A stretch of 64,000 nucleotides of DNA from an uncultured Spirochaetota bacterium (lineage in GTDB: Bacteria; Spirochaetota; Spirochaetia; SZUA-6; CAVTHK01): positions 192,001 through 256,000 of the forward strand of contig CAVTHK010000001.1 in the NCBI GenBank assembly GCA_963734495.1. The letters run 5' to 3'. Numbering within the stretch: position 1 is the first letter of the stretch; each line of letters starts with the position of its first letter. This document shows, in pieces, positions 1 to 34,561 of the stretch. Both the position numbers and the translations under genes were made by a program. Below the pieces are notes generated by a model. The model was given only the letters and a program-made list of their open reading frames with translations, did no database searches and was not told the DNA's origin.

Positions 1-340
1 GGAGATCCTCGGTTCGCGGGTCCCACCCCGCGGGGAGAACGGCGTTCATGGTCTTGGCGAGAAACTGATGGTGGGCCCTGTGGCTCGCGCTGATCTGGTC
101 TTCGGTGGTGAGGGCCGCCATCGCGGCCGCTGCCACCGCCTCCTGCCCGATGCTGATGTGGATGGGGCCGTTGACGCAGTCGTCCTGCTTGAGCCTGATC
201 ACGCTTCGTTCGAATGCGTTGATGAGGTAGATCTCGAAGAGCACCCGCACGGCCGTGAGGGGGTCCATCGCGCCGACATCGCTCCCGGCGGACCGCCACT
301 CCTCCCAATCGAAATCGACGCTGAGCTTCTCGCGAGTCAT
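1..340 (-). CDS. TPP-dependent 2-oxoacid dehydrogenase E1 (alpha or alpha/beta fusion), N-terminal part, truncated by window edge
   Basis: Not in ORF track. Manual translation from ATG 340 (GGAGG upstream) gives MTREKLSVDFDWEEW...NGPIHISIGQEAVAAAAMAALTTEDQISASHRAHHQFLAK, the E1-alpha H-x-S-x-GQEA and HR-x-H motifs. Confidence 0.8.
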   Translation of the reverse strand, partial: MTREKLSVDFDWEEWRSAGSDVGAMDPLTAVRVLFEIYLINAFERSVIRLKQDDCVNGPIHISIGQEAVAAAAMAALTTEDQISASHRAHHQFLAKTMNAVLPAGWDPRTEDL

Positions 341-374
341 TGCGGCCCCTCCCCGGCAGATGCGGTCGACGGAC

Positions 375-403
375 AGCCTAGGAGTGCAGCGGCAGGTCGT
401 CAA
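375..403 (-). promoter_or_regulatory. sigma70-type promoter for the E1 gene
   Basis: Minus strand TTGACG-17 nt-TAGGCT, about 35 nt upstream of ATG 340. Confidence 0.55.
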
Positions 404-405
404 GA

Positions 406-420
406 TCTGATATGATCAGA
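406..420 (+). promoter_or_regulatory. extended -10 (TGnTATGAT) inside palindrome TCTGAT-N3-ATCAGA, candidate operator
   Basis: TG 408-409, TATGAT 411-416, perfect 6-bp inverted repeat; ATG follows at 426. Confidence 0.45.
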
Positions 421-425
421 GCAAG

Positions 426-1497
426 ATGAAGGCAACACCCGGGCTCCTCGAGCTCGCAGACGGCCGCAGGGTCGCGAAGCCCGACTGGGCCGAGCGCCGC
501 AGGGAGCTGCATGCGGCGATCGTCGAGCACGAGTACGGCGGGATGCCGCCCGCGCCGAAGGGCACGACTGTCGAGCTCCTGTGCAGCTCGACGATCAGGA
601 GCGAAGGCGGCGTCGGGTTCCGCACCTACGAGGTCCGCTGCGATTTCGACCGCGGCCGCGAGCTCGCGTTCTCGCTGAACCTGTGGGTGCCGCCGGGCGA
701 CGGCCCGTTCGCCGTGGTGCTCGACGGCGACGGCTGCTGGCGCTACCTTCAACGACGACATCGTCCGGCGGGTGATCGCGCGGGGAGCCATCGCCGCCTC
801 GTTCAACCGGACCGCGATGGCCGCGGACAACGGCGAACGCCATCGCCAGACGGGCCTCTACCGGATCTTCCCCGAGGCGTCGTTCGGCGTGCTGGCGGCC
901 TGGGCCTGGGGCTATCACCGGTGCGTCGACGCGCTGGGAACCCTCGGCTTCGTGCGGTCCGACCAGATCGCCATCACCGGTCACTCGCGCGGAGGGAAGA
1001 CGGTGCTCCTCGCGGGCGCGACCGACGAGCGGATCGCCCTGACCAACCCCAACGACTCGGGCACCGGCGGCTCCGGGCTCAACAGGCTCAAGGGCAGGGG
1101 CGCGGAGGTGATCGACGACTTCTTCCGGTCGGGCAACATCTTCTGGTTCGGCAAGGGCTTCGCGGAGCACCGCAATCGGGATGCCGAGCTGCCGTACGAT
1201 CAGCACTACCTGCACGCCCTGATCGCGCCGAGGGCGCTGCTCGTCAACGAGGCCCATGGCGACGCGTGGGCGAACCCGCCGGGATCGTACGCGGCCTGCC
1301 TGGCGGCCCGCGAGGCGTACGAGCTGCTGGGCGCCCGCGACGCGATCGGCTGGTCGTTCCGGGAGGGGGCCCACGGGCACACGCCCGAAGACTTCGACGC
1401 GCTGCTGGATTTCGTGGACCTGCGCTTCTCCGGCAAACGGCCCGTGCGCGGATTCCAGCGCGAAGTGTTCTGCGACCTCGACGCGCAGCTCACCTGA
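426..1497 (+). CDS. CE15-family (glucuronoyl esterase-like) alpha/beta hydrolase, one frameshift near 749
   Basis: ORFs 426 and 772 join on removing one C (cgc tac c ttc aac). Motifs LAAWAWGYHRCVDAL, GHSRGGK (nucleophile Ser), SGTGG, LPYDQH, ALIAPR, DxWANP. Confidence 0.85.
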
Positions 1498-15028: not shown

Positions 15029-18000
15029 GTGGAGAGGGAAAGCCGTACCTATGTGCTCGAATCTCTGGAGCAGCGGCTTCTCCTGTCAGGGACTGGAATC
15101 CCGGACGCGATGGCGGCGGCAGTCCCCCCATGTGAGTCGCTCATCCAGGTGCAGGTGCGCGGAAGCGGCGAGCAAGTAACGATTTCGCAACAGTCAAGCT
15201 CCGGGTACAGCCCCGAAGCCAAACTGTCTGATCTGTTCGGGGTCGGAGAGCAAGGCGACGAGAGCGAAGGCGACGAGAGCGGGCCTGTTCGCGAGGATCC
15301 TCTCGCCGGTCCGCAAACACCGGCTTCCACTACCGTTGATCCGAGCTCGCAGGGAACGGAGCTCGCATCTCCCTCGGATCAGGACGGAGACAGGGCGGAA
15401 GACCCCGTTTCCGACGGACCGATCGGGCGCTCGCTCAATCGATCGCGGCCGGCCGGCTCGTCGAAATGCTCGAGGCGGCACAGCCGCCCCCGGACCATGA
15501 GGACAGCGCAGCCGCGACCGGACTCACTCTCGGGGATCTGGACTCGTTCGTAGAAGAGGCCAGGAGACGGTGGCGGGAGAGTGCGTCGATCGACGACAGT
15601 GGGCTGGATCTCCTCGCGTCCGCTTCGTTCAGCATCGCGGATCTCGATGGCTCTGGCGCTGGGCCTGACGAACGGATCTGCGTCCAGATCGACGCAGACG
15701 CCGCCGGCCACGGGTGGTTCGTCGATTCCTCGCCTCACGACGACCAGGAGTTCGAGCTCGTGTTCGGCGATACGCTGCTGGCCGACTACCGCAGTGCAGC
15801 GGCCGGCCGCATGGATCTGCTCACGGTCGTGATGCACGAGCTCGGGCACGTTGCCGGTTTCGAGCATACCGCGCAGACGGGTCTGATGGCGGAGACTCTG
15901 CAGGCAAGCCAGAGGCATCTGCCGGCGAGCCGCAACGCTGGCCCGGACGCGGCTTCCGCAGCCGACGAGCTGGTTGAGACCCTGCGGGCCGGCGAGCCCC
16001 CGCCCGCGGACGGGCTGTTCCTCACGATCACCCCGGACCCCACCGGCGCGGACCTCAGTCTCCTGAGGCAGGGCCTGCCGGAATTCTTTGGCGGCCTGCA
16101 GGTCCGTCTGAACATATCGGTGTTCAATTCGGCCACCACGTACGTGGGGCTCCCCCTCATCGGCACGCAGATGGCGACGGAGACCCCGGGGCAGTTCGCC
16201 GACCTGCTTGCATCGCGGCTCTCGGACTTCCTGGCAGGGATCGACAACGTCTCCGTCGATTCCGTCGTCGCCGAGCTCGAGCGGACCCTGGCCGGCAGCA
16301 TCGCGGGCGACATCAGCGTGTACGGCCGCGACGGAGACCCCCTCATCCTCTTCCAGCTCACCCTCACCGGGACCATCTCGGACGCTGTGGATGCGGACCT
16401 GGGCCTGGGCGAGGATCCCTTCCTCGAAGTCCTGATCAACACAGAGGACATGGCGCAGGTCACCGCGACGTGGAGCCTGGAGGTCACCTTCGGGGTGATT
16501 GAAACGAGCGACGGCTCGTTCTTCGTCGTCGACACTTCGCAGGCTGACGAGGTCGCCGTCGAGGTCCAGGTGATCCTGGACAGCGACCTGTCCGCCATCG
16601 GGAAGCTGGGTGTCTTTTCGGCGCTGATCGAGAACGATCCGAATCAGGTCTCGACGTTCCAGGGCAGCTACACCATCGACCTGGTGGACCCCGACAACCA
16701 TCTGACAGTGGCGGAGCTCGACTCGCTTGTCCTCGACGCCTCGCTTTCAGGCACCGGCTATGCGGACCTCGACATCGAGGGCTCCTTTGTTCCCGATCTC
16801 TACGCCTGGACAGACGGGCAGTACCAGGGGCTGACCGACGCGGATCGCAACGACGTCTTCAACGTGGCGATCACGACCGACGCGAAAATCACCTACGCGT
16901 TTGCGGATGCCGACCCGTCATCCGCGACCTTCGGCACCGATCCGGTCATCGCGTTCGACAATGTCCAGCTCGACGCCGACGAGTACCTCGGCGGGTTCCT
17001 CGGGCCCGTCATCAGGGCGCTGCGGCCGGTCCTTTCCCAGATCAAGCCGATCCTGGATTTCCTGCAGACCCCCATCCCCGGCATCAGCGATCTGAGCGAA
17101 GCCGTGGGCGGGCCCCCGGTGACGTTCATGGACATGGCAAGCATCGGGTCCCCCGCTGCTTCCGCGGCCCTGCGCACCCTTTCCCTCATCACCACGCTGG
17201 TCACGGCCGAAGCGCCCGCGCGCACGGGAACCCTGACCAACCTGGTGGGCATGGGCTCGTTCAGGGTCCGCGCGTCCAAGGTGTTCGGGCAGAAGACCGA
17301 GGTTACCGAGTCGAAGCCGGCAACGGATGCAAAGAAGGGAGTGCAGAGCAAGAACGAGCTCGTCATGAAGCTCGGAGGAGACATCAGCCTGCCCCTCCTG
17401 GAGGATCCTCAGAACATCTTCAAGCTCATGCGCGGCGAGACCGACGTCACGATGCTCGGCCTGAGGATCGACCTCGACCTGCAGCTCAAGTTCGCCAAGA
17501 CAATCCCGGTGTTCTGGATCCTCTCAGTGAAGATCGAGGCGAAGTTCGGCATGCTGCTGGATTTCGACATGGGCTACGACACCCTCGGCATCCGCTGGCT
17601 GTCCGAGACGCTGGACTACAGCGATCTGTCCACCCTCGAAGCGAGCCTCCTGGGCAACAAGCAGCTCTTGAGAGAGGGACTATACTTCGACGACCACAAC
17701 AGCAAAGGGGCCGTGGACGGGAACATCTCGCCGCCGGCCTTCACGGTGTCGGGGGAGCTGGCCGAGGACCCGCCGAACCTGGACGGCGCCGAACTCAAGT
17801 TCTTCGCGTCCGTTGGCGCGGGGGTAGTCCTGGGGATCGACACGGGGGTCATCAAGATCAACGTCGGCGTGGACTTTCCGTTCACGCTGGACATCCTCTT
17901 CGACCTGAACGACCTCCCGAACCGGCTCCCTCCCGACCAATGGCGCGACCCCGCGCTGGAGCCCGGCGTCCTGTACCAGTATCCCGCATCGCCTGCCGAC

Positions 18001-21000
18001 TATACCTACGACGGCCGCGTGAGGCTCGGCGAGCTGGACATGGAGCTCGCCTCCGATCGCCTCGCCATCTTCAAGTCCATGGGAGAGTTCTCGGTAGCGC
18101 TGCAAGCGTACATACTGGGCACGCTGGATTTCGGGTTCTTCAAAATCGTCGTCGTCGACAAGCGATGGAATCTGTACAAGATGACGCTCGCCAATTTCGA
18201 CATCTACACGCCGCCCAGCGACACGGAGGTGCTGTCCGGTGTCGTCAAGCGGCCGCCTGTTTTTGCCGGTTTCCTCGATCCCGCAGATCCCGGCACGCTC
18301 ACCCTGTACATGGGACCCTACGACTACCTGCGCGAGAACACGAACCCCAACGGCCTCGGTCGCGATTACGGGTTGGACGAGGAGTTCCGCATCCGGTCGC
18401 TTGGCCCGACGGACCCGAACGATCCCGATGCGGGTGAGACCGTGGTCGTGAAGTACCTGGACACCTTCGAGCAGGAGTTCACCGGGGTCAAGAAGATCGT
18501 TGGAAACGGCGGCAGCGGCGACGATGTCTTCTACGCGGATGAGACGGTCGGAGTCGACGTGGTCATGGTGGGTGGAGACGGAGCCGACGCGCTGGTCTAC
18601 CGGGGCTCGGGCGACGCGACGCTCTGGGGCGATGCCGGCGACGACGTGCTCGCAGGCGGCGGCGGCAACGATACCCTGGTCGGCGGAGATGGAAAGGATG
18701 ACATCGACGGCCAGGCGGGCGACGACCTGCTGATAGGAGGCAACGCGATCCTGGACGTCGTCGCAGGCGTGATTCCCGATCCCGCGGATGACGCGGTCGA
18801 CGGCGACATGCTCCTCGGCGGTCCCGGCGCGGACGTTCTCTATGGACAGGGAGGCGAGGACTATCTCGACGGCGGGGACGGAGACGACGTGCTTGTCGGA
18901 GGCGCCGGCGCCGACCGCTACATCTGGCGGCCGGGCAGCGGCGCAGATACCTTTGTCGAGGCTCCCGGATTGGCGGACAGCGACCAGCTCACCGTCGAGG
19001 GCGGGCTGGAGCTCGTCGGCAGCGGCGAGGATGTCGAGAACTACTATTACCGCGAACTCGACGACGACATCACGCTGAGCAGCGCGGGCGCTGCCGTGAT
19101 CATCAACGACGGGTCCTCGTCGATCTCAGCGGAGAACATGGAACAGATTGTCGTCGCGGCCGGAGGCGGCGCGGACACGGTGACGATCGGAGACCTCTCC
19201 GGGACTCGCCTGGAGCGGCTCGCCATCGACCTGAGCTCCCCCGTGGAGACCGCTCCCGAGGGCGACAAGGTCGTGATCAACGGCAGCGCGGATCCCGCGG
19301 TGGTCGACGTGATCACTGTGGACGGCGTCTACGAGCAACACGATCAGACGAACCTCGAAACCGGGGAGACGGGACCCGGCTCGAGCCCCGCGGTGCGCAT
19401 CACCGACGCGCAGCTCTCCGGTGCGGGAAGCTCGCAGCCGTGGGAAGCCTTCATTATCAATTCCTCCCCAGACAGGGATCAGCTGGAGATCTACGGGAAT
19501 CAGGGCGACGACCGGCTCTCCATCACCGCGGGGCAGGAGGACGTCCGGGTCCATGACCTGATCGACGTTTCCCTCTATGGAGGAGAAGGCAGCGATACCA
19601 TCCGCTCGGTCTACGCCGACGTGCGGATCGATGGCGGGGCCGGCACGGATTTCGTCACCCTGGCGGACGACGAGTACGGCCGCGATCTGCCGAGCGCGAT
19701 GCGGTTCGATGAGCTGCAGAGCGATGTCCTTGAATACGGCGAGGACGGGCTCCTGCTGACCGGCTCGAGCATTCTGGCGGCTTCCGCGGAGGTCAGCAGG
19801 TCCGTCTATCCCTCGGACCCGGTCTCCGAGCTCTTCACGCTGCGGATGGCGGACGGCGGTGCTTTCGATCTCGATGCCCTGGACGTCCGCCTTCGCGACG
19901 CGGACACCGCCGGCCAGACCGTCATGTTTACGGGCACGACTGCGAGCGGCGGCACGGTCACGCAGAGCTTCTACGTCGACAGCGACGGGGCGGCCCCCGA
20001 GTTCCACACCCTGCTCTTCGGCGCCGGATTCGCCGATCTCGTCTCCGTCTCCTGGCGTCCCCTGATGACGGTGACGGACAACATCGTCGCCAACGGACCG
20101 CGTCTCACGCTGTCCAGGGCCGGATCGGATTCGGGTGCCTTTGTCGCAGCCAGGCGAGGATTGCCCGACACCGTTGCCTGGTTCGCGGGGATCGAAGAGA
20201 TGCGCCTGGAGATGGGTTGCGACGCAGCAGGAAACCACCTGCAGGTGTTGAGCTCGATCGACGGCCCTCTCACGGTGGACGACGGCGCGGGGAACGACGC
20301 CCTGTTCATCGGATCCACGCAGGGGCCCCTCGTCGTCAACCTGGAAGGCGGCAACAACGAGGTGTCGTTCGGAAAGGACGGCACGCTGGCCGCGATCTTC
20401 GGCAGCGCGCATGTGAACGGCGGCCCCGGCGAGGACACGATCGTGTTCGACAGCACGGGGGAGGTCTCCGTTCAGGGGCACGTGGGGAGCGACGAGGTCC
20501 TGGGACTCGCCGCCCCGGCGGTTGTCGGCTTTGACGCGAACGTCGAGAGCCTGTGTCTCCTGCTCGGACCGGGAGACGACACCCTGTGGGTCCCCGATCC
20601 CGGCAGGAACATCGTGATTCGCGGAGGTGAGGGGGAGGATACCCTCGTCCTCGATCTGGCCGCGGACCCGGTGACGGGCAAGGTGACGACCTTTGACGTC
20701 GAGACCATACGCGTCTCGGACGTTCGAGCCGCGGGCGCGGGCGTCTGGACCCTCACCGATGTTCCCGCAGGGACCGGCCAGCCGGTGGCGAACACCAGCC
20801 TCTGGGCGCTCGACGGGGCGCCGCTGCTGCAGACGTTCGACGCAGCCTCGAGCCTGCTCTCCCTCACGTACCGTGCCGACACCGTCGAGATACTCGACGT
20901 CAATCACGACACCTCGGTCGATCTGAAGCAGGGGGACGACGAGGTCCGGGTGGGTCTGCCGCAGCAGAGCCTCTACAAGAACCTGGATGACATCCTTTCG

Positions 21001-24000
21001 CGCCTCATCCTGCTGGGCGGGGATGGAAGCGATCGGCTGCGGCTCGCCGACACCGAGAGCGGCAGCGAAAGACAGATCGGCGTTCTCGGGGTCTCTTCGA
21101 TCGCCGGGTTCGGCATGCCCCTGGAGGCCCGTATAGAGCATTACGGTTTCGAGGAGCTGGCGATCGAAGCGCTGGACGACAGCGGATACGACGTCACCAT
21201 CCTCGAAAACGCAATCTCCGCGACGATCACGCTCGGGGCCGGCGACGACACGGTCTCGGTCGGCACGAGCTCGGGGCCGCTGAGCCTGAACCTGGGAGAA
21301 GGCGATGACGAGGTCGATCTCCATGCAGCAGCCGCTCTCCTGAGCATCGACGGAGGCGGCGGGGACGGAGACAGGCTCGTCTTTGACGGGACGGCAAGCG
21401 CATCTCCCCTGAGCGGGACCCTGTCCGACGGTGACGGCCCGCTCGGCCTGCTCGCCATCACCGGCCTCGTATCGGCGGCCTCTTTCCAGGGCATGGAAGA
21501 GGTCGATGTTCGTCTCGGCAGCGGCAGCGACGCGTTCCTCGTCGATCACGCCGGCGCGGGTCCCGTGCTGAACGTCTCCGGATACGGAGGCGACGACAAG
21601 CTCACGATACTCGACTGTGGGCTCGCGGCCGACTTTGTCGGCGGGTCGGGCAACGACACGCTGGAGATCGAGATTCCGGGCGATCCTGTCCTGGAGGATT
21701 TCACCGGCCTCACCTTTGTCACGGAGACGCTGGTCATTGACAACAGCAGCTACGGCTCCGGCGTGGACTGGACGCTGGAAGCCGGCGTCCTGTCCGCGGG
21801 CGGCAACGCCGTGGTCAAGACCGACGGAGCAGACGAGGTCAGGATCATCGGCGGCCTGGGGACCGACACGCTCGCCGTCGTGGAAACGGGCGGGCCGGTG
21901 GACGCGAGCATCAGCGGCAACCGCGTCAAGCTCATTCAGGGCGCGGTGGTCCTGGAGCCCGAGGATTTCGCGCACGACGACAGGCTGACCACCGCCGGCG
22001 GAATCGAGGGATTGGCGGGCCCCGAAGGTCTCGCGGTGGTCCCTGATCCGAACGGCAGCTTCGTGTATGTCCGCGATGCCGACGGCACGCTGAGCGTGTT
22101 CCGCGAAGGGCCGGCGGGCCTCGAGCTCCTCCAGGTGCTGCCGGCTTCGAGCGATGGCCTGGGCGGAGGCGTCGGGAACACGAGCGACCTCGTGGTCACG
22201 CCGGACCTGCGCTTCCTCTACACGAGCACCGGCGCGCTGAGCCAGATCGGTGTGTTCAGCCGCGATGCCGTGACGGGCCTGCTCACCTACGCCGCCACTT
22301 TCAAGGACAGCGAGAACGGGCTCGACGGCCTCGGCGGAGTCTCCGGCCTGGCGATCAGCGGGGACGGGGCCTTTGTCTATAGCGCGGCAACGGGCGAAGG
22401 CGCCGTCGGCGTGTTCGACGTTCTTGCGAACGGCAGCCTCACGCTGCGGCAGGTGCTCTGGGGCCAGGCCGGCGTGGACCGGATCGCGATCGCGGACGAC
22501 GGCTGCAGGGCGTACGCTGCTGCGGGCCACGACGTCATCGCCTATCTGCGTGATACGTCCACGGGGACTCTCACCTGGATGTACCGCATCGGGCCGGACG
22601 GGACCATAGTCAGGGACCTGACGTCTGCCGGGGGCGGGGATGCCGAGCCCAACGACCAGGCAGCATTTGCGCTGGATCTGGAAAGCATCTTTGCATCGGA
22701 TACGTCGTCCTGGTCGCAGAGCTGGAGCGCGTATATTCCCGGGCAGAGATACGCTTCATGGTCCACTACCTTCGCGGCAGAGGCAGGAGCAACCGTACGT
22801 CTGGACAACAGTGTCCGTCTGTCCGCCTACAGCGCGACCGCGACCATGGAGATCCGACTTGCCGGAAAAACGCTTACGTCGCTCATCAATAGCAGCCTGC
22901 TGCAGTACGAGTGTCCGACGTCGGGAACCTACGAGATAGTCCTCATCAACTGGGCTTATTTCATGGGGCCCATGTCGGGCACGCTGACGGCGACGGTCTC
23001 CCCCCTCGCTGCGAGTCGGAGCGCCACGGCAGAGGGCGAGATATCGGGCACGCAGGACGCCGACTTCTACCGATTCCAGGCTTCGCCCGGCGACGTCGTC
23101 ACGCTCACAGCGGATGCCCAGAACGTGACCCTGCCGAACCCTGCCTTGCAGGTCTTCGGGTACGACGAGCTCGACAACACGTGGGTGGAGCTGCCCTTTG
23201 CCCTCGTGAACGGCAGCCTGCGCTACACGGCCATGCCGTATTCGGGCGACTACTACCTGGTCGTCGAAGCGAGCGGCTCGCAGACCGGGACCTATCGGTT
23301 CACTGTTCAGCACAGCTTTCCGGGGATCCGCTCGGAGTCGGAGACCGGCGCGACCAACACGAATGACACGGCGGCGAGGGCCGACGACCTGACCGGGAGC
23401 TTCAGGCCAGGAGCGGGAGACGTCTATACGGCGCTGATAGGCGGCAGCCTGGACCCCGTCGACCTCACTCAGCCTGATCGTAGATCTGACCGCGCTCGGA
23501 CGAACCTCACCGTCGTACCCGGACCCCGTCGCCACCCAGTCGGCCAATCCGCCCTGGGGCGGCATAGCGCAGCTCGGCGTCGACGGCTACGTGCGCGTGT
23601 ACAACCCTCCAGGCAGCTATTTCCCGCGATACAGGGAACCGGGCACGCCGTTCTACCCGGGTCCCGGCTATCTCTACATCCTCGACGGGGTCTATCCCTC
23701 TCTGGAGGCCTTCGCAGTCGCCTCCACCAACTATCCCAATCCCGATCCCAAGTGGCTGCACTACTGGTGGAGCCTCGATCTGACCCCCAACGTGGACGAG
23801 CTCTACCAGATAACGGGCATAGACATCGTCGCTTTCTGCCCGTCAAAGGCGGTCGAGCTGACGGTCCTCGCAGGCGACTACATCTGGCCCAACGGACCGA
23901 ACAGGACATACGGGCAGGGCATTCCTTTCCAGTACGACCCCGGCCAGGACATCTGGCCGATGGAGTACGCCACTTACTCCATCACCATGCCGGCCGGATA

Positions 24001-27000
24001 TCTCACCTTCGGTGACCACGTCTTTATCAGGTCCAGCAACGCGATCTACTACGCATACGCCGACTCCGAGTGGCTGTACATCGGCGAGATGAAGGTATAC
24101 GGGAGGAAGGCAGATCCGGACGTCGACTTCTACAGCTTCGACGCGCAGGCGGGAGACACGCTCGACATCACGATGACCGGCGCGACGCTTGCGGATCCGA
24201 GGATCTGGCTCTACGACGCGCAGGGGAACGAGATCGCCGTGGGCCTCACCGGTTCCCTCTCCCGGCAATTGACCGACGATGGAACTTACTACGTCAAGGC
24301 GGGCGGAACGAGCCGGTACTCGTACGGCAGCTACGGCCTGAACGTGTCGGTCACCAGGGCGGCGCCGGCGGCATCCACCACCATCGACGACCCGCGGGCC
24401 ATGGCGACGATCACGATCGACGCGGCCGGCACGCCCGACTATCTCGACAAGCGATTCCTGTACATCGGCGGCACGACCTTGTCGGGCGAGAACGCCCTGC
24501 AGGTCTTCGACGTATCGGGCGTGCTGCCGCGGCCTCGGCTGCTCCAGACGGTGCAAGGCCTCGGGCAGGTCTACGGGATCTCGACGGGCGGGGCTGAGGA
24601 CGGCCTCGTGTTCGTGGCCCACCGCGGCGCCGGCGGCGAGGGAACGGTGTCGGTGTACCGCAGGCTTGCGGACGGCACCATCACGTGGATGCACAGCCTT
24701 GGCCTCGGCGTCACAGGCACTGCGGAGGCCGTCGCGGACATGGCCCTGGACGTCGAAGGCGACAGGATCTACGTCACCGATGAGAGCGGCCAGGACCTCA
24801 CCGCGCTGCGTTTCGACGGGACGCAGCTTTCCGAGGATTCCACGGCCTGGCACGGACAGCCCCTGGGAGACATCGTTCCGTGGCTGCAGTCCGTTCACGT
24901 GAGCGCGGACGGTCAGTTCGTCTACGGCGTCAACCCCCAGCTCGACGCGCTCCTGGTGCTCCGCTCGGACAGCCTGTCCTTTGCAGCCTGCTACATCGAC
25001 GGGCAGTCCGGAGTCGACGGGCTCGCCGGGGCCGCGGCGGTCGCCCTCAGCCCCGACGGGCTGCGGGTGTACGCGCTCGCTCCGGGCGACAACGCCGTCG
25101 CCGTGTTCGACGTGGTCTACTCGCCCGTGAATACCTGGAGACTGGCGTTCGTCGCCGCGATCCCGCTGGATTCGTCGGGGCTCGGCGATGCGACTGGCGA
25201 TGCGACGGCCCTGGCCGTGGGCACGGACAGTCTCTACGTCGGGTTTGCGGGAGGGATTGCCCGATTCGACTCCGGCTCTTTCCAGCTGCTCGGCTCGGCG
25301 CCGGCTCTCGGCGTGACCTCCCTCGAGGCAAACCCGACGTATCCGGCGCTCTATGCGACTGCCGACGGAGAGCTCCGGCGGTATGCGTCCGATCTCGCCG
25401 GCCTGCCCCAGGTCATCGGCGGCCTCCCCGGCGCCTGCGACATCGCGGTCAGCAGCGACGGCGGCACGATCTACGCAGCAGTGGCAGGCGCGAACGCTAT
25501 CGCCGCGTTCGGCGAATCCGGCGGCGCTTTGTCGAGCACGCCCCTTCAACTGATAAAGGAAGGCCAGAGAGGAGTCCGCGGCCTGGTCGGCGTGAGCGCG
25601 ATAGCCTTGTCACCCGCCGGCGACCTGGTCTTTGCGGTGGGGAGCGCCAGCGACTCCCTGGTCGTGCTCAAGAGAAATCCGGTCACCGGCGAGCTTCTGT
25701 TCGCCCAGGCCTTCAGGAACAGCGGCGAGCTGGGTCTCGAGTCGCCGAACTCCGTTGCTGCTGCGGGCACGCGCGTCTTTGTCGGGTCCTCGGCGGGGCT
25801 GGGCATCCACGGCGGAGGCGTCGCATCCTACAGCCGCGTCGAATCGGGCGACGCCGAGCAGGGGTACACGGTCAGCTTCGTGGACGTCGAGGAGCTGAGC
25901 CTCACCACCGGCCTGCATCAGGACACCGTTCGGGTAACGGACCCGCCCTCCGTGGATCTGCTTTCGATCGATACCGGTGCCGGCGCCGACGTTGTGAATC
26001 TCCAGGGTCTCGGCGCGCGGACGGAGATCCGCACGGGCGACGATGAAGACACAATTCTCGTCGGCTCGATCGACGCCGGGGCCCTGCTGGCCATCGACGC
26101 CGGGGCCGGGGAAGATTCGATTTTCCTCGCCGGCGCCGGCGCGGATGCACAGGTCGAGATTCACGCCGGCCCCGCGAACGACGTGATTCAGATCGCAGGC
26201 GCGGCGCTCCAGAACGGCTCCCCGGTAGAGCTCTTCGGCGACGACGGCGAAGACACGCTGCTCTTCGATCCTTCGGGGCAGCCGGTCGATCCTGCAGCTC
26301 CGTCGACCCCCGATGGCTCCCTCAAGGTGCTCGCCTCGGACGGCGGAGTCGTGGACTACTGGAGCATCGAGAGCGTGCCGGGATTCCAGGCCGCGACCGT
26401 CGAAGCGGGCGGAGACACCGCGCTCTCCGAAGGGCAGGACCTCATCCTCGCCGCGACGGCGACGGCGGCCACAAACACGCAGATCGTGTCCCTGCTCTGG
26501 GACATCAACGGCGACGGGTTCTTTGGTGATGCGCAGGGCGCGACCCCGACGGTGAGCTGGGAGGATCTCGTTGCGCTCGGCATCGGCGACGGGGCAGCGC
26601 AGGAAAAAGGCGGCACGCGCTACGTGGTCAAGCTGCGGGCCTACGACGACGCCGGACGGTTCGCCGAAGACGAAGCGGCGCTTACGATCTTCGATTCGCC
26701 GCCCGCGATCGCGGTCACCGCGCCTGCCACCGTGTCGGTCGGTGAGACCCTGACCATCGGCCTTGCTGCGCGAGATCCCGGCGACGACACCATCGCGCAG
26801 TGGACCGTCGACTGGAGCGACGACCCGCAGGTTCCCGCAATTGAGAGCTTCCCCAGCGATTGCGCTTCGATCGAGCTCGTGTGCCTTCGGACCGGCGTTC
26901 ACACGATCACGCTTGCGGCTTCCGATGAGGACGGGACCTACACGCGGACGATCTCGGTCACGGTCGAAGCCCCGAGACCCGATGCGGGCGGTCCATACAG

Positions 27001-30000
27001 CATTCTCGAAGGACAGAACCTCTCACTTCAGGCGACGGCTCCCGGCGGTCCGGACATGGCGTGGGACCTGGATGGAGACGGGGAGTATGATGACGCGTTC
27101 GGCGCTGGTCCTTTCCTGACGTGGAGCGATCTGGCGAACCTGTCGAATCGCATCGACGACGACGGCTCGTACGTGATTTCCGTGCAGGCTTCGTACCTGG
27201 ACATCTCGGGAGGCGTCGTCCATATGCGCACTGCAGATGCCCAGTTGCTGGTTTCTAATGCGAGCCCAACGGCGGACTTTGCGGGCGCCGGACCCGTGAG
27301 CGAGGGCGGGACAATCACGGTCGTCTTCGGCAATCAGCACGATGCCTCTTCCCGGGACGAGGCGGCCGGTTTTGGATACAGCTATGACCTCGACAACGAC
27401 GGGACCTTCGACATCGTCGACAGCGCCGATCCTTCGGTCTCGTTCACCGCGGCCGACTCCGGCTCCCGGATCGTCCGGGGCCGCATCACCGACAAGGACG
27501 GCGGCTTCTCCGATCACCTGGCAGGCGTAACGGTCTACGAGGTGGCGCCGCTGATCGAGCTCACCGGCTCCGATTCGACAAACGAAGGCTCGCCGTATTC
27601 GCTGGAGGCAACCGTCACCGACCCCGGGAACGACACCATCGTCGAGTGGGTCCTCGACTGGGGCGACGGAAGCGCGAGAGAGACCCTGGACGGCGGGACG
27701 CGGGCCTTTGCCCATGAGTTCGCGGACGACGGTGTCTTCGACGTCACGCTCACGGCCAGGGACGAGGACGGCATCTACATCGCGTCCAGGACGGTCACTG
27801 TAAGCAACGTGGCTCCAGTGCTCCGGATCGCCGGGGTGGCATCCACGGAAGAGGGCAGCACGTACACCCTGTTCCTGGCGTCCGATGACCCCGGCGAGGA
27901 TACCATTCTCGAGTGGACCATCGACTGGGGAGACGGCACGGTCGACACGATTTCGGGAGAGGCTCGAGCGGCCCGGCACGTTTACGCAGACGACTCTGCG
28001 GACGAGCCGTTGGGCGCCTATCGCATAACAGTCACAGCCACGGACGAGGACTCGCCTCCGGGCCAGCCTTACGCGGTCACGCAGGTGGCCGCGCTCACGC
28101 AGCCCCTCTACGCCTGGGACGAGGGCCAGGGGACCGTGCGCCGCTTCTACCTGCTGACCCGCGAGGGTCTCGCCTGGCGCGATGCCCTGCTCGAAGCCGA
28201 GGCCCTGGGCGGGAATCTTGCCGCGATCACGAGCCAGGCCGAACAGGACTTCCTGGACGATGCGTTTGTCCGCGGAGTGTTGTCGCCGCTGCCCCTCTGG
28301 ATCGGGCTCAACGACGCTGACGGCGACGGCGTGCTGGCCTGGGCGAGCGGGGAGAGCCTGCAGTACGCGAACTGGACGATCGGCGGCTGGGACGGCCTGC
28401 CGTACATCGCCCTCGTGCCCCAGGCGGGCGGGGACTTCGCGTCGCGGGTCATCGGGTTCGAGGCGCTTCCCGACAGCGTCAGGGTCTATGAAGAAGGCGG
28501 CCTCCTGCTGGCCACCGACGGGGCCGCGCTCATCGGCGCTGCAGGTCACGGAAGCCGCGCGGTAGCGTCGGCCTCCGCGACCGATGCCTTCACGCTGTCG
28601 CTCTCCGGCGGCGGTGTGTTCGCCGTCCGCTCGCTGGATATCTCTGCGCCCTCTCCCCAGACCCTCCGCTTCGACGGCACGACGCCCGAGGGGACAACGG
28701 TCAGCCTGACCTTCGAGGTCGGCGGCGCGGGGCCGGGGACCTTCGAGACCATCTCTTTCGGTTCCGCCTTCCTTCACCTTGTTTCCTTGACCTGGACGCC
28801 GGGGTCTACGGTCGTCGACAACGTAGAGATCACGGGGACACCGTCGCTGTGGGCCGGGTTCACCGACGAGCAGTGGCGCGGAATCGTCGAGCTCGGCTCG
28901 ATCTCTGGCCTGCCGTTCGTGGCCGCAGGCGTGCTGCCGGTCGTCGTCGAGAACGTGGCGCCGTCGATCCCGATGTCCGGAGCTGCCGCTGTGAGCGAGG
29001 GCGAAATCTACGTCCTTTCTCTCGGCGTTCCGTCGGACCCCGGCGCGGACACCGTGACGCGCTATCTGATTGACTGGGGCGACGCCGAGGAGCTCGTCGA
29101 TGCGCCGGCGCCCGGCGTGGATGGCTTCGTGCCGGCGCTCTCTGTCTCCCACGTGTATTCCGACGGTGAAGCGGCTTACGAGATCAGCGTCACGTTGATA
29201 GACGAGGACGGCAGCTACGAGAGCCCCTCGCGCCTGGCGGTGGTGGTCGAAAACGTGGCTCCGCTTGCGCAGCTTTCCGGCGCCTCGAGCGCGGATGAGG
29301 GCTCGCAGTACACGCTCTCCATCGGAGACCCTTACGATCCGGGCGTCGATACCGTGACCGAGTACGTCGTTCACTGGGGCGACGGCAGCGTTGAGAGCTT
29401 TGCTCAAGCCGGCGAGGTCGACCACGTCTACTATGGCGCCGCAGAGCGCGTGATCACCCTCGACCTGGTGGATGAAGACGGCGTCTACCTGGCTGTCGAT
29501 TCGCTGAGCCTCACCGTCAAGGACGCGCCGCCGAGCATCATTCTTGCCGGAGCGTCGGAGGTCGTCGAAGGGGCCGAGTACGCGCTCGTACTCGGCGAGG
29601 CGACGGATCCCGGACAGCCCGGCGTCGTCGTCGAGGTCGAGGAATACATCGTCCACTGGGGCGATGGCGCAACCGAGAGCTTCACGGAAGCGGGCGCGGT
29701 CCTTCACACGTGGCTCGAAGGCCCGTTCCAGCACGTCATCACGGTGGACCTGGTCGTCGGCGGGACGCTCTACAGCAACGCGGGCAGGCTCGGCATCTCA
29801 GTGAGGAACGCGCCCCCAGTCATCCTCAGTCTGGAAAGCAGCGCTTCCGGCACCAGCACGGCGCTGCCGGTCGAAGACGTCATCGTCACCGGCACATTCG
29901 AAGACCCGGGGATCCTGGACACCCATACGAGCGTCATCGACTGGGGCGACGGCACGGTGGAGCCCGCCGTGGTCACGCAGGGAAGCGGTTCGGGGACGCT

Positions 30001-32479
30001 CACCGGCAGCCACAAGTACACCTACAGCGGGTTCTACGACATCCGGGTGACGGTCACGGATGACGATGGCGCGAGCGACAGCGAGGGAACGCTGGCGATC
30101 ATCAGCGGCGTCGGCATCATCGACGGCGTCCTCTACATCGCCGGCACCCCGGGGGCGGACCACGTCGTTGTCAGCCAACTCTCCTATCCCATTTCGTACT
30201 GGAGCATGAACGAGGGAAGCGGGCACGAGATAGGCGACAGCGCCGGCGAGCCGCAGGACGGGTGGTTGTACAGCCCGTGGCCGGACCGCGACGACGCGGG
30301 GCCGTCGGAGGCGCCGTTCGACGCGCAGACCGGGGTCGACTTCCACCGGGAGCACCGCGAGTACATCGCGGTCGCTCACGATGAGGCCTTCGAGCTGTCG
30401 GAAGGCACGATCCAGTTCTGGTTCAAAAGCGACAAGGGCGGCCGCCAGGCGATGCTTTCCAAGGACGGCTGGGGGACGGGGGCCGGGGGACTGACCATCT
30501 GGCTGGTGGACTCCCGGGTCGAGGTGAGGCTGGAGAGCGAGGACGGCAGCACCACGATCAAGTCGTGCAAGGTGGTGGACCGGAGCGGGTGGAACCACCT
30601 GGCGTTCAGCTTCGGGCCCCAGGGGATGAAGCTGTACGTGAACGGGGAGCTGGTCGGGGAGAACGGGTACCAGGGAGGGCTCGAAGGGAACCGGGAGCCG
30701 CTGGTGCTGGGTGGCTCGATCGCGGGCAACAAGGGCGACAGCGCTGACCTGTCGCGGCTGAAGGTGACGGACTTCTTCGACGGCTCCCTCGACGAGGCGG
30801 CGATCTACGGCGAGCAGCTGGCGGAGGAACAAATCCGGCGGTTGATCACGGACGGGCCTGCACGCGTCGCCAGCGGCCGGGGAACGGTCATCGAAGTCCG
30901 GGCCGATTTCATTGACAACGAAGAGCACACGAAGCGCTTCAACGTCGCGGACATCGAAGCCATAGTGGTCCTCCTCGGGGACGGCGACGACACCGCCGAG
31001 ATCGGGGCAGAGATCACTCTTCCGCTGCGGATGTATGGAGGCAAGGGAGACGATCGGCTGGTCGCGGGCAGCGGCGACTCCGAGCTGTACGGCAACGAGG
31101 GAGATGACCGGATCGCCGGCGGTCCCGGGAACGACACCATCGACGGCGGTGAAGGCGACGACGTCCTGTTGGGCGGAGCCGGCAACGACCGTCTCTACGG
31201 TGGACCGGGAAACGACGTGCTCATCGGCGGGGCCGGGGACGACGTCCTGGACGGCGGCGAAGGGACGGACACGACGTTCGGCGATGCGCTTCTTCCCATT
31301 TCCTGCTGGAGCATGAACGAGGGGAGCGGCCACGAGATCGGCGACAGCGCCGGGCGAGCCGCAGGACGGGTGGCTGTACAGCGCGGTGGCCGGACCGCGA
31401 CGACGCGGGGCCGTCGGAGGCATCGTTCGATGCGCAGACCGGGGTCGACTTCCATCGGGAGCACCGCGAGTACATCGCGGTGGCTCACGACGAGGCCTTC
31501 GAGCTGTCGGAAGGCACGATCCAGTTCTGGTTCAAGACCGACAAGGGCGGCCGCCAGGCGATGCTCTCCAAGGACGGCTGGGGGTACGGGGATGGCCTGA
31601 CCATCTGGCTGGTGGACTCCCGCGTCGAGGTGAGGCTGGAGGGCGAGGACGGGAGCCACACGATCAAGTCGTGCAGGGTGGTGGACCGGCGCGGGTGGAA
31701 CCACCTGGCGTTCAGCTTTGGGCCCCAGGGGATGAAGCTGTACGTGAACGGGGAGCTGGTCGGAGAGAACGCGTACCAGGGAGGGCTCGAGGGGAACCGG
31801 GAGCCGCTGGTGATGGGCGGCTCGATCGCGGGCAACAGGGGCGGCGGCGCCGACCTTTCGCGACTGAAGGTGACTGAGTACTTCGACGGCTCCCTCGACG
31901 AGGCGGCGATCTATGGCGAGCAGATGACGCAGCAGCAGATCCGCCGGCTGATCGCAAGCGGACCTCTCGGGCTCTACGGCCTGCAGGGCTACGGCGGCAA
32001 GATCGCCGACTACCGATTCTCGTTCGAGGACGGCGGGCTCGTGGTCGGCGATCGGCGCGGGTCCGCGGGGGCGGACGGAACCGATACCGTGAGAGGTATC
32101 GAGCAGCTTCTCTTCGCCGACGGCTCAGTGGCCTACGTGCTGGGCGCCGGCAGCAGCAACCAGGCGGCGCTCTCAGCCCAAGAGGTTCTCCTGCTGTCGC
32201 CGTCGCACCGCCTCGTGGTGGTTGGAGAGGCCGGCGAGACCCTCCGCCTCGAAGGTGCCTGGATGAATTGCGGCGGGAGAACGGAAGGCGGCAACAACTT
32301 CTGGAGTTGGAAGCACGAGGATGGGAAGGCCGGACTCCTGGTGCTGGACGGCGTCGTGGTGGAACCGGATGTGCTCATTCCGACCCGGATCCCCCCTGCC
32401 TGCCACCACGGCGGCGCCCGATGTAAGCAGACTCGTCACCCGCCGCGGCACGACACAGCAGGCCGCTGCGCCCGCATGA
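15029..32479 (+). CDS. giant (~5,800 aa) LEPR-XLL-type surface protein/adhesin; frameshifts near 15415, 23464, 31352, 31385 and probably 32395; start 15017 or 15029, end 32426 or 32479
   Basis: Joins tracked ORFs 14981, 15466, 23591 and 31480. LESLEQRLLLS N-terminus; HELGHVAGFEH; GGxGxDxL repeats (~18500-18950, ~31040-31270); lactonase-type propeller blades; DxDFYxF PPC motifs; DWGDG PKD repeats; WIGLND C-type lectin; 2 LamG; C-terminal GTDTVRGIEQLLFADG. Confidence 0.85.
30188..30859 (+). repeat. LamG-coding direct repeat, copy 1
   Basis: ~670 bp, near-identical to 31295-31965; many differences are at third codon positions. Confidence 0.95.
31295..31965 (+). repeat. LamG-coding direct repeat, copy 2
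   Basis: Matches 30188-30859; carries two 1-nt insertions and is one codon shorter. Confidence 0.95.
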
Positions 32480-32543
32480 GCGCCTGCCTGCCTCACGCGA
32501 CGGTGTGGTCCTACGCCGGCAACGCGCCGCGCGCCGCCGGTGC

Positions 32544-34561
32544 TCAGCGCAGCCTTGAACGCCTCGGCCACCTTCGCGCCCTTGCGCACGTAGACCGGGA
32601 TGCGCGCGAGCGGCGCGTCGGCCTCGAACCACTCGCCGCCCCGCGCGGCCTTGCCGGTCCACGCGTCGACCCAGCTCCCGCCCGCAGGCAGGTACACGCG
32701 GCGCGACCGCGCCTTGTAGCTCGCGACCGGCGCGGCGACGATGTCAGGCCCGAACAGAAGCTCGTCGTCGATATCGTAGAGGACGCTCTCGCCGGGGTAG
32801 TCGAAGAACAGCGGTCTCATGGGCGGGACTCCGCTGTCGTGGGCCGCCTTCATTTGACTCTTTATGTAGGGCCGAAGGCGCTCACGCAGGAACAGCAGCT
32901 CCTTGATGATGGCGTACGCCTCCTCGCCGAACGACCAGACCTCGTTGTCGGCGCCGGTCCCGGGATTGGGGACGCGCGGCTCGCGCACGCCGTGCAGCCG
33001 CATAACGGGGCAGAAGACGCCCCACTGGAACCAGCGTACCACCAGCTCGCGGAACTCCGGGTCCGCGATCGCGCCGCCGAAGAATCCGCCGATGTCCGTC
33101 GTCCACCACGGGATGCCGGCCATCGCCATGTTCATGCCGTTCTTGATCTGCTGCCCCAGCACCTTGAACGTCGAGTAGATGTCGCCGGACCAGACGCACG
33201 CACCGTACTTCTGGCTGCCCGCCCATGCGCTGCGGCACAGGTTGATCGGCAGCTCTTCGCCCGCCGCCTTCATGCCTTCGTAGAATCCCATCTCCTCGTA
33301 CAGCGGGTAGAGCGCGGAGACCTTCGCGCCGGGGCCTGCATGGTAGCGCACGTTGTGGTTGTGGTAAGGCCTGTACTCGGGCTCGGCCTCGTCGAGCCAG
33401 AACAGGCGCACGCCGCGGTCGTAGTAGTTCTTCTTCGCGGTCTCCCACACCCAGCGCCGCGCCTCGGGGTTGGTGAAATCGACAAAATGAAGGTAGCTCA
33501 CCTCGGAATACGTGTCGACGAACCGCATAAAGACGGGCAGCCCGGTGTCGGCCTTCACCAGGAGCGCCTTGTCCATCATCTCGAGGGACTTCGGGTGCTC
33601 GCCCGCGACGGTGGGCCAGATCGAGACCATCGTCTCGATGCCCATGCTCTTGAGCTCCTTGATCATCCCCACCGGGTCGGGCCAGCACTTGGGGTCGAAG
33701 TCCCACGCGCCCTGCATCGGCCAGTGGAAGTAGTCGATGACGATCACGGACATGGGAAGGCCGCGGCGCTTGTGCTCGCGCGCGACGGCGAGCAGCTCGT
33801 CCTGCGTGCGGTAGCGCAGCTTGCACTGCCAGAAGCCCATGGCCCAGTCCGGCATCATCGTCGGGAAGCCGGTCAGGCGGGCGTAGTTGCCGGCGACCTC
33901 GGCGGGGTTCCCACCGCCTAACACGAAATAGTCGAGCTGGTCCGTCTTTTCCGCGATCCAGGTCGTGCCGTTGTTGACGAGCTCGGCGCGGCCGGCCGCA
34001 GGGTTGTTCCAGAAGAATCCGTAGCCCTTGGAGGAGTAGACGACGGGGACCACGGTGTGCGTGTTCATCTGAAGCAGCTCGACCACGCACCCTTTGAGGT
34101 TGAGGAAGCCGTACTGGTTGTGGCCGAGGCCGTAGAGCTTCTCCTCGGGGTCGGCGGCGAAGCGGGCCACCGCGCGCACGGCGCCGGGCTCTACGGGCCG
34201 GAGCTCGCGGCCCGCGTCGGGGTAGACGCGGAGCGTCTGCCGCTCCTCGAGCAGGGTGCGGCCGCTCGCGGCATCGACGAAGCGCAGCGGCGCCTCGAAG
34301 CCGGCGACGCCGCGCGCCGCCTGCTCGCTCATGTGCACCGCGAGCTTCCCGCAGCGCAGCACCACTTCGGTGTCCGTGGCCGTCACGGAGGCCTGCGAGG
34401 CCTTTCGCTTTCGGGTTGATGGTCCAGTCGAAGGGCTTCGGCTCCTCCCCCAGCGTGAGGCGCACGCGGATGCAATCCTGGCTCCACGCCTCAACGCGCA
34501 GTAGCTCGCCCTGGTAGCGCCGCTCGAAGAAATCCGTCCCGTGGGTTACCGACCCGACCAT
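32544..34561 (-). CDS. GH31 glycoside hydrolase (alpha-xylosidase-like); frameshift near 34400 and probably 32552
   Basis: GFWQCKLRY, IDYFHW, FWLDEAEPE, WSGDI, PWWTTDIGGF, RLHG. GGAGG RBS. Removing one G gives the terminus FKLR-stop at 32544. Confidence 0.9.

Follow-up and report, generated by a model that had tools for sequence, protein, structure and literature searches.

Nested domain insertions in a giant RTX-type, adhesin-like gene of an uncultured Spirochaetota bacterium

Results

Layout and reading frames of the giant gene

The window, a 64,000-nucleotide stretch of contig CAVTHK010000001.1 (positions 192,001 to 256,000) from the MAG of an uncultured Spirochaetota bacterium, carries one giant RTX-type gene on its forward strand (Table 1). 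The gene is read in three frames because it contains three +1 shifts: frame 0 covers 15466-23457 and frame 1 covers 23441-31363, followed by a short piece in frame 2 (31317-31385) and by frame 0 again (31384-32388). With the frames joined across the shifts, the predicted product comprises ~5,600 residues; as assembled, the gene does not translate in one piece. The continuous reading of the original prediction crossed these three frameshifts without mentioning them. The second and third shifts are two 1-nt insertions in LamG2, at ~31352 and ~31385.

The frame changes bear on the state of this copy. The nested anatomy could be real and the copy nevertheless a decaying pseudogene, with true +1 mutations, a lost stop and no full-length protein; the chance of this lies just short of even. 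Three frame changes in 17 kb are set against the uninterrupted frames of 3,848-4,843 aa in the 10 longest of 13 related loci. The first in-frame stop appears only at 33921, none being found near the position where relatives terminate, and the readthrough frame past the gene runs antisense to a GH31 gene. The ~15 ABC-type matches on the window's contig (C1) are each one unbroken piece, the fragmented ones lying on contig C3, and a lectin-region query found no orthologue in the same-genus genome G001. Against decay, each of the three indels adds one base to a short run of G or C, as is usual for consensus errors of long reads, and two of them sit within a 95% repeat, a setting in which polishing often goes wrong. 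The assembly does contain indel-ridden sequence: matches to a second rpoB, on contig C3, come as seven fragments, with the open frame rotating among three. Each frame in turn retains a strong GC3 coding signal, which would make any decay very recent. A young pseudogene and consensus errors are about equally likely explanations of the three indels.

Table 1 Features of the giant gene (positions in the window)
Feature	Position	Strand	Basis or remark
Giant RTX-type gene	15466..32388	+	three reading frames; GC3 frame plot
Conserved N-terminal scaffold, ~1,200 aa	16048..19674	+	31-46% identity in relatives; includes RTX repeats
Jelly-roll cassette, copy 1	19678..20097	+	insert relative to 16/17 relatives; 37% identical to copy 2
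Propeller 1, blades 1-4, Lactonase-type	22012..22593	+	blade profile, two-chain model
PPC1 N-terminal strand, EPND motif	22633..22686	+	motif
PPC1 candidate insert, ~114 aa, no family assigned	22687..23028	+	Pfam, relatives
PPC1 C-part	23029..23313	+	Pfam PPC positions 1-69, 20.5 bits, cut-off 25.9
PPC2 N-part, TNTND motif and strand DVYTALIGGSLDP	23347..23457	+	last sense codons of frame 0
Frameshift 1 zone (frame 0 to frame 1)	23441..23500	+	C4 run at 23453-23456 inside
PPC2 insert, ~210 aa (originally 'discoidin')	23480..24112	+	family not established
PPC2 C-part	24113..24358	+	Pfam PPC 28.3 bits; last strand pairs with PPC2 N-part in model
Propeller 1, blades 5-7	24422..24850	+	blade profile, two-chain model
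Propeller 2, seven blades	24872..25846	+	conserved across family
PKD repeat upstream of lectin	27803..28096	+	own full-length last strand (YAVTQVAAL)
C-type lectin domain, N-part	28097..28435	+	Pfam Lectin_C, AF2 model, alignment
Jelly-roll cassette, copy 2, within lectin domain	28436..28840	+	fold not confidently modelled
C-type lectin domain, C-part (W...RGIVEL)	28841..28900	+	alignment, AF2 model
Second PKD last-strand motif LPVVVENVAP, leading into next PKD	28934..28963	+	motif, relatives
First rungs of RTX beta-roll (GVGIIDGVLYIAGTPGADHVVVSQ), LamG1 host N-part	30107..30184	+	relatives, AF2 model, fold comparison
LamG1 cassette (Laminin_G_3)	30187..30857	+	Pfam
Remaining RTX beta-roll	30884..31294	+	Pfam, AF2 model, fold comparison
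LamG2 cassette	31294..31957	+	92-95% DNA identity to LamG1; two 1-nt insertions, one 3-nt deletion
C-terminal element beyond LamG2	31960..32388	+	weakly alignable to C-termini of four relatives

The N-terminus yields a Matrixin-like HExxH stretch (24.5 bits) as its sole Pfam match. Jelly-roll copy 1, which follows, is an eighth insert beyond those listed originally, and is missing in 16 of the 17 relatives with alignable flanks.

A propeller opened by PPC domains

The Lactonase-type blades span 22012-25846 and the PPC block 22594-24358, in agreement with where the original prediction had placed them. The blade profile counts 14 blades, four before the block and ten after it, and the Pfam match to the Lactonase-type propeller PF10282 reaches 39.2-43.8 bits (cut-off 21.7). 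In the two-chain model, built from the halves in frame 0 and frame 1, contacts join blade 4 to blade 5 (1:168-177 / 2:327-329) and blade 1 to blade 7 (1:9,18 / 2:431), a ring closure seen in this model only. The ipSAE is 0.61 (runs 0.61, 0.66 and 0.52; best of three controls 0.00); 116 of 157 solved complexes score this high, as do 2 of 215 mismatches, counts that are only rough here because the alignments were custom-made. Contact agreement does not fall below 64%, nor partner pLDDT below 56. The construct (blades 1-7) was chosen by the analyst, and the propeller halves may have docked through what the predictor had learned from solved propellers. The model nevertheless supports well the originally proposed split of propeller 1, four blades to three, by a block of two PPC domains.

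The lowest-error contacts pair DVYTALIGGSLDP (chain 1, 470-482) with SYGSYGLNVSVTR (chain 2, 281-293), the strand pairing in PPC2 and the propeller being read from the two-chain contact list alone. PPC2 belongs to PF04151 (28.3 and 31.8 bits, cut-off 25.9), and its predicted opening by the ~210-aa insert is well supported by this pairing of its N-part with its last strand. The name 'discoidin', also part of the original prediction, is unproven: the insert gives no Pfam match at E<=10, PDB sequences yield nothing meaningful, and weak language-model look-alikes (0.82-0.83), including F5_F8_type_C and CBM32 clusters, serve as a lead only. PPC1 stays below the same cut-off (19.4-20.5 bits). Its EPND and DADFY motifs lie ~135 aa apart, compared with ~25 aa in one canonical PPC taken as a single example, and Pfam PPC positions 1-69 all lie downstream of the insert; the opening of PPC1 is, on these motifs, plausible only. 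The PPC block has no counterpart in the 29 family sequences compared (~25 distinct), and P0169 has ~230 aa at the place of the window's ~790 aa.

A C-type lectin domain opened by a jelly-roll cassette

Downstream, Pfam recognizes ~8-10 PKD repeats and beta-roll spacers; other Ig-type matches (Big_13, InlK_D3, He_PIG) are weak and overlap the PKD repeats. The C-type lectin domain that branches here matches Lectin_C at profile positions 4-71 only (25.7 bits, cut-off 22.6), and its WIGL and W..D...G(I/V)VE motifs align with those of plain lectins. Solved CTLDs align whole, across both halves, to range 100..366 of AF2 model 1 with Z 12-13.7, just 96-130 residues being aligned, as for 4yli_A (Z 13.7, rmsd 2.9, 120 residues) and, with low-confidence parts trimmed, 1egg_A (Z 12.3, 101 aligned). 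Mean pLDDT of the model is 71, and 33-60 in the jelly-roll and lectin loops. Plain lectins, both canonical (P0091) and from a relative (P0155), have a few residues where the window has ~135-185 aa. The split of the lectin domain by a ~135-aa 'jelly-roll', as originally described, is thus well supported, although the name of the insert found no family support in searches. The position of the lectin itself, originally assigned to the last strand of a PKD repeat, is ambiguous because the strand motif is present on both sides: it does resume after the lectin, as a second copy, and the PKD repeat upstream is already complete.

LamG cassettes in an RTX beta-roll at the C-terminus

A HemolysinCabind match (E 1.3e-27, 95.8 bits) marks the C-terminal RTX nonapeptide beta-roll, and both LamG1 (71.1 bits) and LamG2 (71.7 bits) belong to Laminin_G_3 (cut-off 27.6). 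RTX beta-roll structures align over range 93..491 of AF2 model 2 with 122-140 residues, spanning LamG1; the matches include 3p4g_A (Z 13.8) and, at Z 11.9-12.3, the CyaA RTX blocks (7usl_C, Z 12.3; 6sus_A, Z 11.9). Mean pLDDT of this model is 61, and 24-63 in LamG. LamG1 had already been listed as an insert between two flanking motifs, and its budding out of the beta-roll behind the first rungs is well supported. Nesting of LamG2 near the end of the roll is plausible only, the alignment being made by eye (BLAST E 0.77). Both cassettes have sharp borders, and their ~95% DNA identity points to LamG2 as a recent intragenic copy; a scan of 30000-32200 revealed no near-identical tandem repeats besides this pair.

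A purely sequential arrangement, with the resuming host motifs as chance look-alikes or separate small domains, is improbable. It would suit the PKD repeat, complete before the lectin and followed by a duplicate strand, and LamG2 might simply be one more bead, placed between the roll and a C-terminal domain. Models, fold comparison and relatives contradict it for the propeller/PPC block, PPC2, lectin/jelly-roll and LamG1: whole solved lectin domains need sequence on both sides of the jelly-roll, beta-roll matches span LamG1, the halves of PPC2 and of the propeller pair at low expected error, and host segments are contiguous in relatives.

Presence and absence of cassettes among relatives

With ~25 distinct members compared, the relatives constitute a family of proteins of 4-5 kaa that occur patchily in MAGs of several phyla. 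They have a common scaffold and differ by whole cassettes, present or absent at fixed junctions, which was the comparison originally suggested. LamG1 is missing in P0155, P0166, P0177, P0189, P0190 and P0014, where the flanks join within 2-10 aa, and also in L012 and L014; L015 has a LamG at this site. Lectin and jelly-roll are both missing in 11 relatives, the flanks joining within -19 to +9 aa. P0155 carries a plain lectin, P0014 and P0016 carry the lectin with the jelly-roll, and P0169 has a lectin with LamG in another loop; L018, in which the lectin N-half and two LamG matches downstream are seen, resembles P0169. Four lectin states therefore coexist (none, plain, with jelly-roll, with LamG), and the jelly-roll cassette occupies four different sites in the family. 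Anatomy, presence/absence series and LamG duplication are shown by the data, and among the relatives modules appear to have been acquired, dropped and duplicated singly. The proposal of a branched protein diversified by in-frame cassette insertion finds support in this clean series and in the LamG copy.

It is highly improbable that the inserts are assembly artefacts (chimeric joins or a collapsed or expanded repeat): the 18-contig MAG is 83% complete with 4.7% contamination and carries a second, error-ridden rpoB/rpoC set, the PPC block occurs in this gene alone and frameshift 1 coincides exactly with the junction between the PPC2 N-part and its insert, but lectin and jelly-roll recur in the independent records P0014 and P0016 (40-43% identity end to end), LamG recurs at the LamG1 site in L015, the halves flanking each insert fit one another in models and fold comparison, and composition is even across the gene.

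Discussion

The nesting is largely real, and its principle, already published for RTX adhesins, is extended here. Graham et al. 2024 (Proteins 92:933) is reportedly a source for the split-domain, projecting-domain architecture of these adhesins. Split domains with projecting ligand-binding domains are described for AhLap of Aeromonas hydrophila, FrhA of Vibrio cholerae and MpIBP of Marinomonas (PMC12077191; PMC10865825; bioRxiv 10.1101/2025.09.30.679566), and in one case a vWFA domain, split in its turn, interrupts a beta-roll (PMC12077191). Two-level nests are thus on record (beta-roll, vWFA, then an insert or CBM). More generally, one survey reports domain insertion in 20% of multidomain proteins, with nests up to six levels deep (PMC13114784). 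The premise that a giant adhesin is as a rule a string of beads is not supported, and neither is the suggestion of a possibly undescribed diversification mode.

The likeness to RTX adhesins is close. In both, a binding module exits its host domain and re-enters it, and ligand-binding modules are swapped between isoforms. The vWFA domain of AhLap is described as emerging after two turns of the beta-roll, LamG1 here after the first rungs, and the best structural match of the LamG1 host is the MpIBP beta-helix 3p4g. Fold matches, the two-chain model and relatives all place putative ligand-binding domains on split domains. Unlike in RTX adhesins, no long tandem BIg extender array is seen by Pfam in the giant gene. 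General Pfam searches detected no N-terminal retention module. For type I secretion genes, TIGR01843 and TIGR01846 gave no match above curated cut-offs in the 83% complete genome, and none lie in the flanks of the gene. The hosts also differ (beta-propeller, PPC domains, C-type lectin domain), and one branch reaches three levels. At family level, a large non-repetitive N-terminal scaffold is present, and the same cassette (jelly-roll, LamG) occurs at several sites, with one apparently recent LamG copy. General domain insertion (A1-B-A2, recursively up to six levels) follows the same principle; the words adhesin, propeller and lectin have 0 occurrences each in that survey (PMC13114784), and the giant-gene family differs in that every intermediate stage of one nest persists among its members.

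The gene likely encodes one giant RTX-type, calcium-binding, adhesin-like protein, with modules as side branches of a scaffold that diversifies cassette by cassette. The protein is probably secreted or surface-exposed, secretion being something we infer; 'adhesin' and 'ligand-binding' are putative terms taken from the domain types. The family scaffold consists of the ~1,200-aa N-terminal region, beta-roll spacers, a propeller of seven blades, a PKD array and a C-terminal RTX beta-roll. From it the presumed binding modules would project as side branches, with N and C termini together, exiting at a loop or inter-strand turn, and the host fold would close behind each. In an extra 7-blade propeller, two PPC domains stand between blade 4 and blade 5, PPC2 and probably PPC1 being opened in turn by a further insert, giving three levels. 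The C-type lectin domain, opened by a jelly-roll, branches at a PKD-PKD junction; LamG1 buds from the beta-roll after the first rungs, and its cassette copy LamG2 sits near the end of the roll. Most likely, cassettes of whole domains are gained, lost, swapped and duplicated within the gene by ordinary in-frame events, at sites whose structure tolerates this, and we infer recombination as the mechanism. It is rather unlikely, though conceivable, that the scaffold is insertion-tolerant in a stronger sense, with jelly-roll, LamG and lectin cassettes copied in frame to new loops, within and between genes, by recombination with some site or border specificity. If true, new binding specificities would arise through copy-and-paste at the level of domains, a route that could be traced stepwise because all intermediate states survive in relatives.

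Cassettes gained and lost among relatives

The N-terminal 1,200 aa of the giant gene recognise a family of 4-5 kaa proteins. The 13 related loci compared lie in MAGs that bear the labels Accumulibacter, Chromatiaceae, Rhodospirillaceae, Alphaproteobacteria, Spirochaetaceae, Planctomycetaceae/Pirellulaceae and Cyanobium, and 10 of them hold uninterrupted frames of 3,848-4,843 aa. Queried with the scaffold, a sample of 400 genomes of the window's phylum yields no family member. The lectin-region query finds no lectin plus jelly-roll orthologue in 40 close relatives, a same-genus genome included, and short C-type-lectin matches only in five of these. The three frames of the window were compared by collinear BLAST with 16 proteins and 13 loci, six pairs of which are >90% identical. 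Three alignments were left out: a global one between the query and entire relatives of 4-5 kaa, in which the lectin region is misaligned, one smearing propeller rows across the PPC block, and one with all fragments on blades 1-4.

The cassette junctions obtained in this way are clean, which bears out the precise presence or absence of inserts expected of homologues by the original prediction. At the site of jelly-roll copy 1, the flanks of relatives without the cassette join within -13 to +46 aa (0 aa in locus L015), and locus L021 is ambiguous. Eleven relatives are without the block of lectin and jelly-roll, and their flanks meet within -19 to +9 aa. The related protein P0155 carries an uninterrupted lectin, P0014 and P0016 carry lectin plus jelly-roll at 40-43% identity end to end, and P0169 has a lectin with a LamG in a loop other than that of the jelly-roll. 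L018 looks like P0169, the parts seen being the lectin N-half and two downstream LamG matches only; in P0174/L020 the lectin N-part is matched and the site is spanned at equal length. LamG1 is absent in P0155, P0166, P0177, P0189, P0190, P0014, L012 and L014, where the host continues unbroken, as in GVLYIAGTAGDDRVSINKACGSIMVHANF of P0014. L015 has a LamG at the LamG1 site with ~45% identity; a run of N interrupts it (protein residues 4304-4337), so the exact cassette length is not comparable.

The region between the conserved VVLEP..F motif and the conserved propeller is variable family-wide: PA14, P-domain or FG-GAP propellers occur in it, and the jelly-roll cassette is found there in at least 11 relatives. 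This ~135-aa cassette (two window copies; P0155 1943-2071; others) occupies four different family sites, most often directly C-terminal to the motif. In P0155, the closest full-length relative, the variable region also includes a glycine-rich low-complexity stretch of ~400 aa (~2180-2560). P0016 and P0174/L020 have one propeller nested in another: a whole FG-GAP propeller (P0016 1715-2050; L020/P0174 ~1700-2030) follows blade 1 of the conserved Lactonase-type propeller, whose six other blades, 2-7, come after it. The PPC block matches nothing in any family sequence compared, its position holding ~230 aa in P0169 versus ~790 aa in the window, and searching relatives for PPC at E<=1e-8 returns a single locus.

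Features of the giant gene and its surroundings in the window
Feature	Position	Strand	Remark
Open reading frame	15466-24015	+	sense up to 23457
Open reading frame	23591-31600	+	open from 23441
Open reading frame	31480-33921	+	sense 31384 to ~32388
Matrixin-like motif	15466-15900		HELGHVAGFEH; 24.5 bits, cut-off 24
Jelly-roll copy 1	19678-20097	+	absent in 16 of 17 relatives with aligned flanks
PPC1 insert	22687-23028		no Pfam match, even at E<=10
Frameshift 1	23441-23500	+	precisely at the junction of the PPC2 N-part and its insert
'Discoidin'	23480-24112		no Pfam match, even at E<=10
Jelly-roll copy 2	28436-28840		no Pfam match for jelly-roll, even at E<=10
LamG1	30187-30857	+	92-95% DNA identity with LamG2
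LamG2	31294-31957	+	92-95% DNA identity with LamG1
GH31 glycosidase gene	32173-34494	-	convergent with giant gene (plus-strand stretch 32388-33921)

Domain content of the giant gene

Pfam profiles identify an N-terminal, Matrixin-like HExxH stretch, RTX repeats, Lactonase-type blades that flank the PPC block, two PPC domains, two Laminin_G_3 domains, ~8-10 PKD repeats and, of the C-type lectin domain, one half only (profile positions 4-71 of 107). The N-terminal zinc-binding motif is also present in the Spirochaetaceae relative L015 (L015:7641-8600, 26.5 bits), and because the two share it, the family may start with a metalloprotease-like module. The language-model look-alikes of the 'discoidin' at 0.82-0.83 include F5/8-type-C and CBM32 clusters, a lead only; those of the jelly-roll are unnamed clusters. 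The PPC2 insert and PPC1 return nothing meaningful in PDB sequence searches. The PPC block read through as one frame, with CGTA counted as a single step, has no protein match among 320-1,019 aa at E<=0.001, and the jelly-roll query none among lengths of 85-273 aa, each result bearing only on relatives of those lengths.

The PPC block within a propeller

The blade profile locates 14 blades, four on the N-terminal side of the PPC block and 10 on its C-terminal side, which make up two seven-blade propellers. Blades 8-14 correspond to the conserved propeller, since in P0155, as in others, the count is exactly seven, with no upstream blade. The halves in frame 0 (22012-23457) and frame 1 (23480-24880) were predicted together as the two chains of a complex. 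The model scores 0.61 (runs 0.61, 0.66 and 0.52) against 0.00 for the best of three controls, with a contact agreement of at least 64% and a partner pLDDT of at least 56. Of the 157 solved complexes used for calibration 116 attain this mark, as do 2 of the 215 mismatched pairs; the calibration is only approximate because the alignments were the analyst's own. The construct was likewise the analyst's choice, and propeller halves may dock because solved propellers are familiar to the predictor.

In the model, low-error contacts set blade 4 on blade 5 and blade 1 on blade 7, the PPC2 strand DVYTALIGGSLDP pairs with the last PPC2 strand, and the TNTND stretch is placed against DVDFYSF. These contacts support two of the proposed nestings: a propeller split by the PPC block, with blades on both sides, and a PPC2 domain split by its insert. 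For the proposed insert in PPC1, EPND precedes DADFY by ~135 aa, a spacing that is ~25 aa in a single canonical PPC of a related genome, and the Pfam PPC model falls wholly after the insert.

The lectin branch and its jelly-roll

The PKD repeat preceding the lectin has a full-length last strand, YAVTQVAAL, which the model also renders as a strand (pLDDT 92). The motif recurs after the lectin as LPVVVENVAP (pLDDT 93), leading to the next PKD, and in lectin-free relatives a single strand aligns with both copies. Because the motif is complete before the lectin and repeated after it, the lectin is a branch leaving the chain where two PKD repeats meet, between the two copies of the strand. The branch that had been proposed there is thus retained; its placement inside the last PKD strand is not clear. 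The jelly-roll within this lectin is supported by the model of the region: whole solved lectin domains align across the insert with range 100..366 (96-130 residues, Z up to 13.7), the predicted jelly-roll copy 2 itself being poor (pLDDT 33-60). Foldseek with the whole of this model returns tandem Ig-like arrays only.

LamG cassettes of the beta-roll region

The model of the LamG1 region is confident (72-92) for the host on either side of the LamG, at 93-119 and at 353-491. Together these two segments match the RTX beta-roll 3p4g_A (Z 13.8, 122 aligned) and CyaA blocks (Z 11.9-12.3, 139-140 aligned), all of them spanning 93..491. The nesting of LamG1, as originally proposed, is supported by these joint matches to a beta-roll and by the unbroken host of LamG1-free relatives. 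The segments flanking LamG2 resemble, by eye, a contiguous element in four relatives (BLAST E 0.77). The LamG1/LamG2 repeat has abrupt borders and unrelated flanks, and its sequence identifies the pair as an apparently recent in-frame copy to a second site of the same beta-roll region. Inspected by eye, the LamG junctions have no standout flanking direct repeat or microhomology.

Reading frames and state of the gene

The plus strand carries one coding signal from 15466 to ~32400, spread over three frames, and GC by codon position passes from frame 0 to frame 1 and back to frame 0. A C4 run (23453-23456) lies inside the zone of frameshift 1. Frameshifts 2 and 3 each add one base to LamG2 when compared with LamG1, at ~31352 and ~31385, where the repeat spacing rises from 1107 to 1108 and then 1109. 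All three are +1 bases in short G or C runs, and the continuous reading of the original prediction passes over them unmentioned. At the position of the relatives' ends the giant gene has no stop codon, its frame continuing antisense into the GH31 gene, to which the coding signal passes at ~32490 in the codon-position GC plot. The open frames of these two genes each cross the other's 3' end, and both are without a stop codon near the apparent end of sense.

Judged from the assembled sequence, a pseudogene and an assembly error are about equally probable. A look-up of public sequencing runs for 23200-32200 lists none. ABC-type matches are unbroken on the window's contig, C1; split ones occur on contig C3 of the same genome. 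This genome has two rpoB/rpoC sets (C3:43503-50324 and C16:21064-28772). On C16 both genes are whole; on C3, rpoB is matched as seven pieces cycling through three open frames, and the second rpoC is split, with a TAG. The double set suggests either contamination or the assembly, rich in indel errors, of a second strain. A per-contig count of frame switches was discarded, as it does not separate gene borders from frameshifts.

Relation to known adhesins

The ligand-binding region of RTX adhesins has a published hallmark, namely ligand-binding domains that project from split domains; the AhLap example is a vWFA domain, itself split, that exits the beta-roll after two turns (PMC12077191). Domain insertion is common, and PMC13114784 records nests of up to six levels. 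Given these precedents, the diversification mode suggested earlier as possibly undescribed is not new. Novelty lies in the protein family, its types of host (propeller, PPC, lectin), a branch of three levels, the survival of the intermediate states as a series and a cassette copy that can be dated. Split-domain display is common to this family and the LapA-type RTX adhesins of pathogens, whereas the present family is unrelated and from environmental bacteria, and its propeller, PPC and C-type lectin hosts are not named as such in the adhesin papers compared. The RTX roll and the domain types suggest type I secretion and adhesion of the giant protein; the profile search returned no dedicated T1SS gene above cut-off in the incomplete genome.

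In conclusion, the split-domain display of binding heads takes in a wider range of host domains, being at work also in an environmental giant-protein family. Such proteins are under-annotated because profile searches detect only host fragments. The family keeps every stage (no lectin, plain lectin, lectin with jelly-roll, lectin with LamG) together with one very recent cassette copy, and with these preserved intermediates both the order and the mechanism by which nested insertions arise can be tested.
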